DNA of 8,767 bases. Origin: a virus. Taxonomy: Duplodnaviria > Heunggongvirae > Uroviricota > Caudoviricetes. Shown piece after piece: positions 1 to 6,000 of the stretch. Position numbers: made by a program. The first letter of the stretch is position 1. Each line of letters begins with the position of its first letter. The stretch is from IMG/VR virus record IMGVR_UViG_2534682078_000033, one strand, 5' to 3'.

Positions 1-3000
1 TTGCTGAGTTTTGGATCGCTTGATGATGTTTCCCTGGCTGATGCCAGAAAACGCCGTAGCGAGTACAGGGCGTTAATTCGTGCCGGAACTGACCCGCAGG
101 ACCACGAGAGGCAAAAAAGAGAGACAGAGGCCCGAAGACAAGGGAACACGTTCGAAAATGTGGCAACAGCATGGTACCAGGTGAAAATCAGCCAGAATCT
201 GGCCCCCAATACGATTAAAGACATCTGGCGATCGCTGGAAAAATATGTATTCCCGTTCATCGGCAACACGCCAATAGACACCCTGACCGCTCGCAGGTTT
301 GTTGAGGTGCTTACCCCCATCAAGGAACGTGGCAACCTGGAAACGCTCAAGCGAGTTTTACAGCGTGTAAATGAGGTAATGGATTACGCCGCCAATAGTG
401 GGATGATTGATGCCAATCCGGCTATGAATGTGCGTAAGGCGTTCCCCTCCCCTGTAAAAAAACATATGCCAACAATCCGCCCCGAACAGCTGCCGGAGCT
501 TATGCAGGCTTTATCAGTATCGGCAACAGAACGGCAGACCAGATTACTGATTGAATGGCAGTTACTGACCGTAACCCGTCCCGTTGAAGCATCGTCGGCA
601 CGCTGGGAAGAAATCGACATGGAGGCGCAACGCTGGACCATACCCGCCGGACGCATGAAGATGCGCCGCGACCACGTTATCCCGCTTTGTGACCAGGCTA
701 TGGCAGTGCTGGAGGCTATGAAACCAATCAGCCACCACCGCGATTATGTTTTCCCAAGTCTGAAAGACCCACGGCAGCCGATGAACAGCCAGACAGCAAA
801 CGCAGCATTACGACGCATGGGGTTCGCTGGCGTGCTGGTGTCTCATGGATTACGCGCCATATTCAGCACAGCAGCGAACGAGGAAGGATTCGAGCCGGAC
901 GTAATCGAGGCGGCACTTGCCCACGTCGACACCAACGAAGTCAGACGGGCATACAACCGGAGCAACTACATAGAAAAACGCGTGGTGCTTATGCGCTGGT
1001 GGGGCGAATTTGTCGAGGCTGCGGCGACGGGCGTAACCCTCGCCAGTGGTAAAAGGGGTATCCGAGCCGTTTAGCTGTACAGAAAACCAGTAAAAACTAC
1101 GAAAACCATTTAAAACCGTCGTATAATTGCATCACATTTAACGACGAGGCCTTGAAAAATGAAACCGTTAAGATGCAAACAAATTTCAGATGCAATTGCG
1201 ACGGGCTGCAACTGGCCCTGATGGTTCAGCATGAATTTTGGTCAACCTACGATCCGGAGGACAGAACGACGGCCCCATCAAAAAAACAGGTAGTAGATTT
1301 CCTGGTATCCCGTGGAGCTTCCAGAAATCTGGCTGTAAGTATTGATAAGGTTGTACGTCCGGCATCCATGAAGACCGGAGGCAGGCCCAAAAAATGGCGG
1401 TAACAATCCTGAAAGCGGCAGAAATGCCGCTTTTTTTATAAATCCCTTTCAAATCATCAATATAAAAAACGGTGTATACCGTTTAAAAACGGTGAGTACT
1501 GTTTTTCCCTGCATCCGATGATTTACCGTATTTCTCACCGGAATACACCGGATTAATGAGGTAAATCACGATGGAAGCAATCAAAAAAGTCATCTTTCGC
1601 CAGGAAGTAAAAAAACTTATCCATATTAAGGCAGACAGCACGCTGCAAAGCATGATCAACGCCGGAGAATTCCCGCAGGGTTTTCGTGTCGGTTTGCGCC
1701 GTCGCGGATGGTATGAGGAAGACGTAATCGCATGGATGAAAGAACGCGAACAAGAAGCGCGCGGAACGACCGCTTAACATATATAGGGCAAATGATGAAC
1801 ATAAAAAAAGCGGCCCCGAAATGGAGCCACCTTTCTGAACAATTAACCCGCTGCGCCGTATGTGTCAACAATCATAAGCCTGGGCATGATAACCGCGATC
1901 AGGCTGGTGGGCAATTATCTTGCTTGTTGGGGCCGTATTGTGCTGCCATTTTCATCCGTTCAGAACGTGAATATTTTTTTAGAAACTCATCAAGGACAAA
2001 AGCGCATGGTGCGAATCTTTCTGATTCATGCTCGAGCGCCATATTTTCGTGCTCTCTGTTCGTTTTTTGCGATGGTGTATTGGTTGATTCTTTATTGGTC
2101 ATTGTGTGTACCTGTAAAGCAATGCGCCGTAGTACCTCACGCCACGGCGCTGATGTTTTTTATCCTTTGGGTTCAATACCGCGTTGCTGTAATTCTTTTC
2201 GGAGTACTCGCTTGATCCAGGTGGCTAAAGAAGTGTCACCGTCTGCTTTCGCTGCCTCTTCAAGTTGTGCTCTGAATTCTTCTGGTAGCCGCATTTGGTA
2301 TGGAGGCGATCGCTTTTCCAATGGTGTTGACATGGTAATTACCCTTAATTACTATAGTTACATGGTAATTACCATTGTACTTACCGTTATACAAAAAACA
2401 ACGCCCCGCAGTGGTGGCTCACATACGGGGCGTCTAACCAAACCATTAATTGAGGTAACGATTATGGCTATAAAAGAGCATAGCTTACTCTTTATACACA
2501 CACAAACGCCCCGGAAACGGAATAATCCGTTTCATAGCTCCGTTTTGTGTACTCATCCTGGCGGGCGATTCTTACGGGACTTTAGCCGCCGTGGGCAGCT
2601 TGCTAAAAATGCCTCCAACGCGAATAGTCCAGGTTTCATTTCTATCGGTATTAGTTGGATATTCAGAGGATTAGCCAGTTCGGCTTCAAGGCGAGCACAG
2701 GTTTCTAACTGCCTTTGCCGAATGATTTCATCTTCTTGCGTCTGCGTGTCTTGTATTGGTGATAGTGTGTTGTTGGTCATAGTACTGCCCTGTAAAGCAA
2801 TGCGCCGTAGTACCTCACACCACGGCGCTGATAGTGATTATTCTGATTCTTTGGCCTTGCGGCGCTGGAGTTCTTCACGTGCGACAGTGACGAGCTGCCC
2901 GATCTCCTCGGCGGCTTTGATTCCGAGTTTTTCCACCTGCGCCAGTGCATTGAGCGAAGAAATCAGGAGGTTTTCTCCGCTTCCTTCTGCCTGGCGGCGG

Positions 3001-6000
3001 GCGATTTCACCGCGCATGGCGGTTACTATGAATCCGGCGTTGCTTTCACCGTCCAGTTTTACGGATTCCATGCCTTCAATAACATCATGCGGGATCCGAG
3101 CTGTCAGTGATTGTGATTTTGCGTTTTTTGAACCTGTAGCCATCTGTAATCCTCTCAATGAAAGTGTAAGACAATATACACATAAAAAGTCTTACATAAA
3201 AGCATTGACATGTAAGCCACCTATAAATAAAGTTACTTACACCTTGTTAATGCAAGGTGCAGAAACGACGAAACCCCGCACTGTAGGAGCAGTAACGGGG
3301 CTTCTAACCACCAACGATAACGAGAGTATCGAGGTAGCTATGAGAAATCATACCACACACCCGCAAGGGCGGGACTCGCACAACCTGAATAAATACATTT
3401 GGCGTTTTATCGCCCTGAGCACTGCACAACCGCGCGTGATTACCATTGAGGCCACCAGCGAACAGGAAGCACGCCTGCAATCCCCGGCTGGCTGCGTGAT
3501 GGTATTCGCTGCCCGTATTCGTCAGGGGGTAGGCTTATGAGCCAGGAAATCACACTACAACAGGCAGCAGAACGCGCCCACCAAATCGAAGTTATTTGCG
3601 CACTGGCAGAGGATTACCCAAGCATGATGACCGACAGAGAATCAGGGGCAATCATCAGCTTACTTAAACGCCTTAGCGGTGAGGTCTGCGTATTCCTGAT
3701 CGATGAACAGGAAAGAAGAACGCTTATTTCTAACGAAAAAAATGCGGAGGGGTACATGTGCAATAAAACCACACCGGACGCAGCCGCCGCGCTCACTACG
3801 CTGATACACGCACTTATTGATATTGAATGCACGGCAGAGCTTGCGCAGGGAGAAGAACAGAAAGACCGGACACAGTTCGCCCTGGAATGTATCCGATACA
3901 TCGCAACGCGGTCGCTGAATGACGCTAAAAATATTCTTGTTGCTGATTGTGAAAATGGGGGGGGGTTATGCGTGATGATCGTTTTAATTCCCTGAAACAA
4001 GAATTTTCCGGCGTTCCTGATGATGCGGCTGATGCGCTTTCGTCAATGCCAGAACTTATTAGAGCGGCTTTTTTCTTACTTTCCACGAGAGAATATAAAT
4101 CAACGGGACTTGATGTACTGAATATCGCCGCCGATTATGCGGAATATGTGGCAGAGGCGCGTTACAGAAGAAAATTTCCTGAGGATGTAAGCCATGCGTG
4201 ATATTTATCTTGAAACAATAGACCGCGCATCACTTGCACTTTCTCACAGTGAAAACATGATGGAAATATTGCGGATGTGCCTTGAATCCTTTGGCGATAA
4301 TGAACGTAATGCAAAAAAACGCGGATTATTACATCATTAATAACGCTTCTTGAGTCTGTAATAAATGAGTTGCAGGAAATAGAGACATTGCACGACAGAT
4401 ATAACGAACAGCACACCGGAGAATAAAAATAATGAAACTTAAATATTCTGGCTTAACTGCCAGTGGCAACACTCACCCTAAATTTACGCGCGGTGATATT
4501 TACCGCGACCAGTACGGCGGCACGGTAATGATTAAGGGCGTGGCGGGACGGTGCGTAACTTACCGCCGTGAAGGTTACGAATATGATTGCGTGATGCCTG
4601 TTTATCAGTTCCGGCGTGATTTTTCTCTGGTACAGACCGCGCCGCATAACGTGCCCACCAGCAACGCCAGGGCACGGGCAAACATCCAGAAGCTGAAAAC
4701 CATGATTAACGGATTCAGGGGCAAGAAATGAAAAGCGCACCGAACTTAAAAAAACAGCCTTACGACAAGATGACCGAAGTCATCATTTTTGCGGGTAGTG
4801 ATGCGTGGGCACATGCGAAACAGTGGCAGGAACAGGACGGGCGACTGGCTGGCGATAATGTGCCTCCCGTTGTGCTGGCTGATGATCAACTGGATGAACT
4901 GGCAGACCTGAGAATCATCGACGAGGGGCGCTATTGTGTCCGGCTGTACAAGGCAGGCCACATCAGGCCATCAAATATTAATGCCATTGCGCACAAGCTG
5001 GCGGCGGCGGGTGTAACTGATGCGAATTATTACCCCGAAGGGATGCACAGCCAGAAGCGGGAGAACTGGCGCGAATATCTGGAACGGGAGCGGGGGAAAA
5101 AGCCAGGGGAAGAAAAACACCACCAGCGAAAAACCACGCTACCAATGAGCGTGGGATCTGCCGGATACGACACACAACTTGATTACGTGGTTAAGGGGAT
5201 TATTCCGGCGGTATCGCTGTGCAGCATATACGGGGCGAGCGGTTCATATAAATCGTTCCTTGCGGGTTCGTGGGCGTGTCACGTTTCCACGGGCCGCCAG
5301 TGGGGAGGCCGCAGGGTGGCGCATGGCGCTGTTCTCTATGTGGTTGGTGAAGGCGGTATCGGCGTTCCGCGTCGTGTAAAAGCCTGGGAGGTTGTGCACG
5401 GTGAGCAGGTGAAAAATCTGTATCTGGTAAACCGTCCCATCTTTCCGGCTGCCCCGCTTGATGTTGAGGAAATGGTTATCGCTGCCCGTCAGGTGGAACG
5501 GGAAACGGGTAAACCGGTTCGAATGATTATTCTGGATACGCTGGCGCGCTGCTTTGGCGGCAATGATGAAAATGATTCCCGTGATATGGGGGCGTTTATC
5601 CGTGGGTGTGACGAACTGAAACGGCGCACAGGGGCAACGGTGCTGGTGGTTCACCATTCCGGCAAGGATGAAACAAAGGGGGCGCGTGGTTCCAGTGCAT
5701 TTCGTGCATCACTGGACGCCGAATACCGGATACGCAGGGAGGACGCAGGCAGCGAAGCGCTGGTTATCTCATGTACCAAAATGAAGGACGCGGAGGAACT
5801 CAAAGAAGCAGCATATGACTTACGCGTGGTGGAGCTTTTTACCGACGCTGACGGGGAGTTAATCACGTCGCTGGTGGTGGTGGATAAGCCGCGCCCTCCC
5901 GTTGAACTGGAGCGCATCGAGGAGGCAGGGAACAAGACGGAGAATCACGCCGCGCTATGGCAGTGCATCAGAACACGAACAGCACACGGGGAGGCGTGCA

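Follow-up and report, generated by a model that had tools for sequence, protein, structure and literature searches.

The 8,767-nucleotide (nt) stretch of viral DNA analysed here, IMG/VR record IMGVR_UViG_2534682078_000033 (the window), has the gene content of a phage satellite of the capsid-forming PICI (phage-inducible chromosomal island) type and carries two copies, A and B, of a short element that combines a CCCCG/CGGGG hairpin with a Shine-Dalgarno sequence (SD) and an ATG. Each copy is likely to be a sense/antisense control cassette of the SymR/RepX type, in which the minus strand specifies an RNA lying over the SD and ATG of an icd-like gene. Copy B, which precedes an intact icd-like gene, most likely encodes a cis-antisense RNA of about 80 nt that would cover the SD and start codon of that gene, and copy A, to judge from its sequence, is apparently an intact antisense RNA gene beside a truncated icd-like open reading frame (ORF). 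The predicted cis-antisense RNA falls outside the Rfam families RF01809 (SymR) and RF00043 (R1162) by their thresholds or by their target genes.

The original prediction had described two related leaders upstream of rightward reading frames, and both were recovered where it had placed them, with 71% identity over 48 nt (2393-2440 versus 3263-3310; repeat search, family D2), a repeat that exceeds chance. The copies also share the box TCTAACCA (Table 1), and both ATGs lie at positions congruent to 1 mod 3 and are therefore in the same frame. The ORF headed by copy B belongs, as proposed, to the Icd-like family NF033153. About 40 nt upstream of each copy is a promoter-like site of the form TTGACA-17-TAnnnT, termed P_A or P_B. 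The regional count of such sites is not above shuffle expectation, so P_A and P_B rest on their position and on their conservation in relatives; a TTGAC(A/G) -35 occurs at the position of P_B also in relatives from other genera. P_A is overlapped by palindromic operators, ATGGTAATTACC and GGTAATTACCAT (2332-2343 and 2364-2375; inverted repeat I7). To the left of each promoter lies a leftward module, of which there are two, each consisting of an Arc/YlcI-type regulator, a conserved 75-nt hairpin block (D1), and a small ORF. When icd-like genes of other species were retrieved by protein similarity, a retrieval unbiased as to the leader, nearly all carried the same upstream element; they come from Pectobacterium, Rahnella, Enterobacter, Superficieibacter, Rosenbergiella, Intestinirhabdus, and others, and their stems display compensatory changes.

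The conserved structure is selected on the minus strand. In 34 representative sequences, RNAalifold yields a 5' stem-loop followed by a terminator hairpin, which is the two-domain fold of the SymR family (a long 5' stem-loop and a GC-rich 3' hairpin), with 97.4% of cells paired and 22 pairs in all, 11 of which show compensatory changes. Not one of the five measures was reached in any of 500 column shuffles, and slid controls were 34 to 54% paired; given the relatedness of the sequences and the derivation of the structure from this very alignment, the shuffle statistics are upper bounds. The asymmetry between strands is independent of the shuffles: canonical pairs make up 97.4% of the minus reading, with 125 G·U cells, compared with 80.7% and a single G·U in the plus reading, the G·U cells of the minus strand turning into A·C mismatches in the mRNA sense. 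Consensus folding energy is -25.6 kcal/mol for the minus strand and -1.7 kcal/mol for the reverse-complemented alignment (independent alifold), and in 34 of 34 sequences the minus-strand RNA is the more stable. Conservation with covariation extends to the 45 nt that separate start site and hairpin (helices 1 and 2). The box TCTAACCA is the 3' half of the 5' helix of the antisense RNA and pairs with its 5' end, AGCCA or AGCUACC.

These strand differences bear on the reading of the element as a leader of the rightward mRNA, in which the hairpin and TCTAACCA would serve this transcript, for example by stabilising its 5' end, binding a protein or small RNA, or forming a translational operator. The location of both copies between a promoter-like site and the SD and ATG is as that reading has it, and the plus strand still forms a hairpin (z of -2.7 for copy A and -2.9 for copy B, versus -4.8 and -5.7 for the respective minus-strand RNAs, whose minimum free energies are -32.6 and -33.8 kcal/mol); moreover, complementary target structure matters in any antisense system. 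The conserved pairing of the hairpin, however, fits the minus-strand RNA only, and a conserved TAnnnT box and start site inside the ORF are left unexplained, making an mRNA leader unlikely. The original interpretation is supported in part.

The TAnnnT box is the predicted -10 element of the minus-strand RNA. Across 50 distinct upstream contexts, its T1, A2, and T6 are invariant, and it is kept although the overlapping codons encode N-H-T, N-Y-T, Q-H-T, or Q-S-T. For RNA B, the predicted -10 is the hexamer TATGAT, read on the minus strand at 3347-3352, extended by a TG and situated 7 nt from the start site. The predicted 5' end of RNA B is the A at 3339, one base before the icd-like ATG, and its 5' stem-loop bears the anti-SD; in copy B, the ancestral ATGGCT has been replaced by GAGGTAGCT. 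Its terminator hairpin (3270-3304) is followed by the tail UUUCGUCGUUUCU. The rightward mRNA is inferred to start from P_B at about 3240, so that RNA B would be complementary to nearly the whole 5' untranslated region (UTR). RNA A has its predicted 5' end at 2469, 3 nt past the copy A ATG, and begins with AGCCAU, the complement of ATGGCT; it ends in a hairpin (2400-2434) followed by UG and U6 (2393-2400).

That copy A might serve as a minus-strand terminator for module 2 had been suggested at the outset, and its minus strand does present the stem ACGCCCCG/CGGGGCGU, 8 bp and GC-rich, followed by UGUUUUUUG, a good predicted terminator downstream of that module; the tail of copy B is weaker. A generic terminator scan listed neither copy because their loops exceed its 8-nt limit. 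The hairpin of copy A is predicted to be the first strong terminator met by the leftward transcript after the small ORF of module 2, preceded only by a weak 5-bp candidate (2509-2522), and it can reasonably, as a secondary role, end that transcript. A broader form of this idea holds that the element is a minus-strand terminator or insulator and nothing else, ending the module 2 transcript at copy A and shielding the repressor promoter from antisense transcription at copy B. Single-module islands, which have no leftward gene to the right of the hairpin, do not agree with it: in Nissle, FRIK2455, and other genera, what lies upstream is just the conserved -10 and start site, 80 nt away. Nor does a plain terminator account for that -10 and start site lying inside the icd-like ORF, as they do in SymR, for the covarying 45 nt between start and hairpin, or for the homology of the entire unit to SymR and RepX. 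We consider a terminator function alone quite unlikely.

Homology to SymR is evident over the full length of the RNA. The Rfam SymR model (RF01809) matches the minus strand of the leader in five genera over model positions 1 to 77 in searches with 4227 families, scoring 36.7 bits in Enterobacter, 36.6 in Pectobacterium, 35.9 in Superficieibacter, 28.7 in Intestinirhabdus, and 24.4 in Rosenbergiella (E = 0.002 to 1.7); the gathering score of 61 bits was not reached, the best relative attaining 36.7. In the reverse direction, a covariance model (CM R1) built from 33 icd-leader sequences, with copies A and B among its seed members and SymR excluded, finds the annotated symR of E. coli K-12 at its exact 5' end (L021, 2836-2919; 30.8 bits). 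When 85 kb was searched with this model without filters, the matches other than symR and RSF1010 scored at most 16 bits, and all fell on leader elements, mostly as the plus-strand reading of the same hairpins.

The correspondence extends to individual sites. SymR begins with AGUCAU and the leader RNA with AGCCAU, and they have in common a UUGUGRUUAG box (the reverse complement of TCTAACCA), an apical hairpin of the GUGUUGGCGCAC type, and a two-helix fold. Like the leader RNA, SymR is encoded opposite its target's 5' UTR, SD, and start codon; it starts 3 nt within the target ORF, which also contains its promoter. The K-12 -10 element, TAGAAT, falls in the same alignment column as TATGAT of copy B and TATGCT of copy A, the TAnnnT hexamer being exactly 7 nt from the start. 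SymR is abolished by a change of CATTCT to CACTCC (Kawano 2007, PMC1891008); since this change hits the TAGAAT -10, the aligned box is the experimentally defined SymR -10. A stable RNA of 77 nt, SymR represses the translation of symE and acts in trans (Kawano et al. 2007, PMC1891008). The systems differ in their targets, which are the AbrB-fold SymE near hsd/mcr for SymR (also called RyjC) and an icd-like gene (NF033153) here; in the sense promoter, which is LexA controlled (SOS induced) for symE and faced by a divergent Arc/YlcI repressor here; and in the U-rich tail, present in most copies of the leader and lacking in K-12 SymR.

The same family reaches the RepX RNA of IncQ plasmids. RepX is a 75-nt, FinP-like RNA with two stem-loops that overlaps the ribosome-binding site (RBS) and AUG of repA-repC, is bound by FinO, and controls copy number (PMC8136791). 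CM R1 matches the strand opposite the RSF1010 repA leader over the full model (L183, 562-643; 30.2 bits). Shared with RepX are the 5' end AGCCAU opposite the AUGGCU of repA, an 11-nt identical box UUGGUGGUUAG, two stem-loops, a -10 (TAGGCT) 7 nt from the start, and an antisense position at the first replication gene, covering its RBS and AUG; the island operon also carries a RepA-family helicase. In contrast to RepX, which lies directly opposite the repA RBS, RNA B lies opposite that of the icd-like gene, and this gene and approximately 1.2 kb of small ORFs separate it from the helicase gene. Copy-number control is known for RepX and would apply to satellites by analogy only. In the first IncQ plasmid retrieved through its RepA protein (L182), where the region upstream of repA is rearranged, CM R1 found no match.

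The Rfam R1162 model (RF00043) detects copy A only, on the plus strand, at 17.9 bits (E = 2.9; the gathering score of 55 was not reached), the shared features being CUAACCACCAAC, the SD, and AUGGCU. On the IncQ1 plasmid p11k (L183), the same model matches the repA-sense strand (562-645; 98.5 bits). RepX being antisense to repA (PMC8136791), the Rfam model is apparently in mRNA orientation. The Rfam SymR and R1162 models miss each other's loci, and the satellite RNAs thus are bridging intermediates between them.

FinP is about 50% identical to RepX and is bound by FinO (PMC8136791); this cis-antisense RNA of traJ, known from F-like plasmids, is described in the literature as having two stem-loops and covering, like the RNA predicted here, the RBS of its target. 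An Enterobacter PICI reportedly carries a ProQ/FinO-like gene together with Icd (PMC13612085). By analogy, the satellite antisense RNA may work with FinO-domain chaperones; the window has no ProQ/FinO-like gene.

Control at the level of RNA at the entry of an icd-headed operon also recalls c4 of phages P1 and P7 and the CI RNA of P4 (RF01695), whose targets of control are icd-ant or P4 immunity. In P1 immI, c4 is placed upstream of icd. A block to icd translation there reportedly exerts polarity on the downstream genes (Biere, Citron, and Schuster 1992). C4 and CI are cut from the sense transcript and act through short repeated target boxes, and an RNA of this kind would here come from the rightward transcript upstream of icd, whereas the RNA predicted here is a countertranscript with its own promoter, and selection is on the opposite strand. 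C4 and isrK gave no match in the window at E ≤ 10, in whole-window or 1-kb searches, and there is no C4 similarity in sequence or structure; the C4/CI candidate was therefore rejected and is extremely improbable, even with the c4-icd order of P1 and a similar order in Escherichia albertii as precedents. In the latter (L009, 1235-1423), isrK (61.6 bits) and C4 (77.7 bits) lie ahead of an icd-like gene, as in P1 immI, and this locus served as positive control for the C4 model. The presence of isrK and C4 in the same position implies that icd-like genes are guarded by at least two unrelated antisense RNA systems.

Several points weigh against an antisense RNA of the SymR/RepX type. We infer from sequence the expression and regulatory effect of RNAs A and B, and their 5' and 3' ends are alignment predictions. 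Neither copy in the window reaches E ≤ 10 with RF01809 in whole-window or 1-kb searches, so that their assignment to SymR would be transitive, through relatives and a model seeded with both copies. The SymR and RepX scores of about 30 bits are clear of the background, but the calibration of the model was shortened, and K-12 SymR, a poor fit here, forms only 7 of the 13 pairs of the consensus terminator helix. A recognisable -35 is missing from copy B, which relies on the extended -10 and has an interrupted U tract. Because the -10 lies in coding sequence, its conservation could partly reflect protein constraint. To these is added the common ancestry of the aligned sequences, noted above for the shuffles.

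Under the favoured mechanism, the divergent Arc/YlcI-type repressor would hold a rightward sigma-70 promoter whose mRNA enters the icd-like gene after a 5' UTR of approximately 100 nt. A promoter on the opposite strand, within the first icd-like codons (-10 TAnnnT, 7 nt from the start), would give an RNA of about 77 to 80 nt that starts beside the start codon and has its 3' end at the GC-rich hairpin; its complementarity to the start-codon region, to the SD, and to the greater part of the UTR would be complete. In this RNA, TCTAACCA would encode UGGUUAGA, of which UGGUU would close the first helix against the 5' end, and the CCCCG/CGGGG hairpin would form both the second helix and the terminator. 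By analogy with SymR/symE and RepX/repA-repC, the RNA would pair with the leader and block ribosome binding at the icd-like gene. Since the downstream ORFs overlap start to stop (for example, ATGA at 3537-3540) and are translationally coupled, the replication genes would probably be repressed as well. In the resting island, the RNA would silence leaky transcripts of the icd-like gene, a presumed division inhibitor; in the replicating island, it would exert a feedback that depends on dosage, comparable to that of RepX in IncQ plasmids.

Copy A had been thought to head a degenerate remnant, and comparison with related islands bears this out. In E. coli O157:H7 FRIK2455 and isolate AF39, a module-1-type regulator, operators, promoter, and copy-A-type leader are followed by an intact icd-like gene. 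Homology of the window to these intact genes ends at about 2511 (codon 15 to 16, MAIKEHSLLFIHTQT), where the 3' flank of module 2 begins. Nissle 1917 carries module 2 alone, and RM9245 has a two-cassette layout with other regulators, in which the junction block is 96.5% identical to the copy A block of the window. From the comparison with FRIK2455, AF39, and Nissle, the window seems to derive from an island with one module that gained a second cassette by recombination, and copy A would have arisen with the entry of this second regulator module. The breakpoint falls just past the -35-like box of RNA A, leaving the RNA gene apparently intact (promoter, both helices, and U6 terminator), so RNA A could still be made. 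The copy A region is matched by approximately 1050 E. coli genomes. The predicted pairing energy of RNA A with leader B is -71.8 kcal/mol, compared with -41 ± 4 for shuffles, a difference that arises from their 60% identity, carries no information on kinetics, and from which no conclusion is drawn.

Among loci with near-identical icd-like genes (L022-L181), the terminator hairpin occurs in many variants, each keeping its pairing, and these combine freely with variants of the 5' half, the switch point being the GGUUAGA box. The free recombination of the halves at this box indicates that the element also marks the boundary between regulator and replication modules. One could take the element to be such a mosaic boundary and no more, a functionless conserved linker for homologous exchange of regulator modules, given the combination of 42 hairpin variants with 35 variants of the 5' part among close relatives and the D1 repeat and leader that flank the extra module in the window. 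Compensatory changes, a strand bias in G·U pairs, and a conserved promoter are not expected of a pure linker, which is therefore very improbable, and recombination at the element is compatible with an RNA gene.

The ATGs of copies A and B are part of a longer plus-strand frame that is free of stops from the end of alpA to the icd-like stop codon (1732-3540; 602 codons). Over 1792-3339, this frame contains 0 stops, whereas its two plus-strand alternatives have 30 and 43. All four leftward ORFs lie antisense to it, in the single register that makes third codon positions coincide, and it also crosses both promoter/operator regions; when the leftward ORFs were shuffled synonymously, the probability of zero stops was 0.009, counting the coding parts only. 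In a set of 126 distinct upstream contexts, the median open length is at least 200 codons for the icd frame and 6 and 0 for the other frames, and in 13 of 13 long-flank loci from several genera, the first ATG of the frame lies -17 to +58 nt from the stop of the preceding rightward gene, regardless of which gene this is. Loci with the stop-free frame are the window, L001, L003-L005, L007, L013-L018, and L020. The extension of the frame differs between islands, and its N-terminal part has no Pfam, NCBIfam, or PHROG match, whereas the leftward ORFs do have family matches. Since third positions coincide, a codon-position substitution test cannot separate the plus frame from the leftward genes. The NCBI annotation pipeline PGAP labels parts of this frame "Icd-like pseudogene."

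The favoured explanation of the open frame would be selection for the translatability of a read-through transcript. A tentative and rather unlikely extension envisages two routes into the replication operon. Transcripts from the local promoter would need the icd-like RBS, which the antisense RNA, of a plasmid type like RepX, SymR, or FinP, would block, its level rising with the copy number of the island. Transcripts from the upstream alpA/antirepressor operon would instead be translated through the stop-free frame to the icd-like stop, the frame crossing the repressor cassette, promoters, and operators in antisense, with translatability alone under selection. Coupled ribosomes would shield the read-through transcript from Rho, pass the antisense-blocked RBS, and interfere with repressor expression, and the orphan RNA A would add a second dose of RNA, somewhat like an incompatibility determinant.

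Present accounts of how such satellites are controlled invoke AlpA and protein repressors. The RNA probably adds an unannotated layer of control to a very common class of E. coli mobile islands; scoring below Rfam thresholds, it is absent from genome annotation. A full-text search, which leaves most subscription journals outside its reach, found no literature linking SymR to Icd-like genes, PICIs, or R1162; in a survey of Enterobacter satellites from 2026, Icd-like and YlcI/YnfO genes are listed but no RNA (PMC13612085). Should the RNA be expressed, satellite induction would have a posttranscriptional, possibly copy-number-sensing layer, and the icd-like gene would gain a partner resembling a type I antitoxin. 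SymR, IncQ RepX, and the satellite RNAs, which Rfam files separately and without a clan, would then form one lineage, suggesting an origin of K-12 SymR in a copy-control RNA of a mobile element.

Table 1. Coordinates of the antisense RNA cassettes and other features in the window; transcripts and promoters are predictions
Feature	Position	Strand	Details
Copy A	2393-2466		CCCCG/CGGGG arms 2404-2408 / 2426-2430; TCTAACCA 2433-2440; SD GAGGTA 2452-2457; ATG 2464
Copy B	3262-3342		CCCCG/CGGGG arms 3273-3277 / 3295-3299; TCTAACCA 3303-3310; SD GAGGTA 3331-3336; ATG 3340
Antisense RNA gene A (predicted)	2390-2469	-	Same family as gene B; CM R1 75.9 bits
RNA A promoter (predicted)	2477-2505	-	-10 TATGCT (2477-2482), 17-nt spacer, -35-like TTGTGT (2500-2505); reverse complements
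Antisense RNA gene B (predicted)	3260-3339	-	SymR/RepX type, ~77-80 nt predicted; CM R1 86.6 bits, full model
RNA B promoter (predicted)	3347-3355	-	Extended -10 TGGTATGAT; inside icd-like codons 3-6
P_A	2327-2355	+	TTGACA-17-TACTAT; promoter scan
P_B	3205-3233	+	TTGACA-17-TAAAGT; promoter scan, 10/12 matches
icd-like ORF remnant	2464-2511	+	First 15-16 codons, MAIKEHSLLFIHTQT; alignment with intact icd-like genes of L004 and L005
icd-like gene	3340-3540	+	66 amino acids (aa); NF033153 Icd-like, E 2.4e-19; phrog_6196, E 2e-44
Module 1 regulator	2160-2333	-	57 aa, Arc-like, divergent from P_A
Module 2 regulator	2838-3143	-	YlcI/YnfO family (Arc/ribbon-helix-helix-like), divergent from P_B; NF041551, E 5.3e-20; phrog_6522, E 1.4e-56
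Tyrosine integrase	1-1074		
AlpA-like helix-turn-helix gene	1571-1777		
RepA-family helicase	4728-6128		PF13481, E 2.6e-43
Small terminase	7193-7681		
Capsid protein	7841-end		

The region examined (1780-3560) is identical to that of an island at tRNA-Pro, adjoining yejM, in E. coli E2863 and O111:H8 strains. The icd-like gene is the first of the rightward replication/packaging operon and is followed by small ORFs, a DUF4222 gene, and the RepA-family helicase. The module 1 regulator has weak matches only (PF03869, E = 0.008; NF041551, E = 4.8e-4; phrog_228, E = 4.9e-7). Satellites that combine int, alpA, a YlcI/Arc repressor, and icd-like with a primase or RepA helicase, and in some cases capsid genes, are very common: the regulator-to-icd region of the window is matched by 1589 of 5426 complete E. 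coli genomes (~29%), and among the matches listed, most span the block of leader B and icd-like gene only. BLASTN found no match to the leader and icd region among 50,697 phage records.

The D1 block is a direct repeat (2092-2166 and 2770-2844; 75 nt, 83% identical) located between the regulator gene and the small ORF of each module, and it is also present in Nissle. Its minus strand forms a 12-bp hairpin, GCGCCGUGG...CUACGGCGC, with GAGGUA in the loop and AUUGCUUUAC thereafter, and was flagged by the terminator scan; D1 could be an attenuator or a processing site inside the leftward operon. Between alpA and the small ORF of module 1 is a further hairpin (1803-1831) with an A7/T7 run, which resembles a terminator of the leftward transcript. 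On the plus strand, it is 79% complementary to 2413-2431 in the copy A hairpin (repeat I2) and thus looks like an inverted version of that hairpin; a partial match to Atu_C8 is limited to its terminator. The RepA-family helicase gene is immediately followed by AAAGTGGGGAGT-like repeats (GGGGAGT type), which form an array over 6128-6330 and are presumably the iterons of the replication origin of the island.

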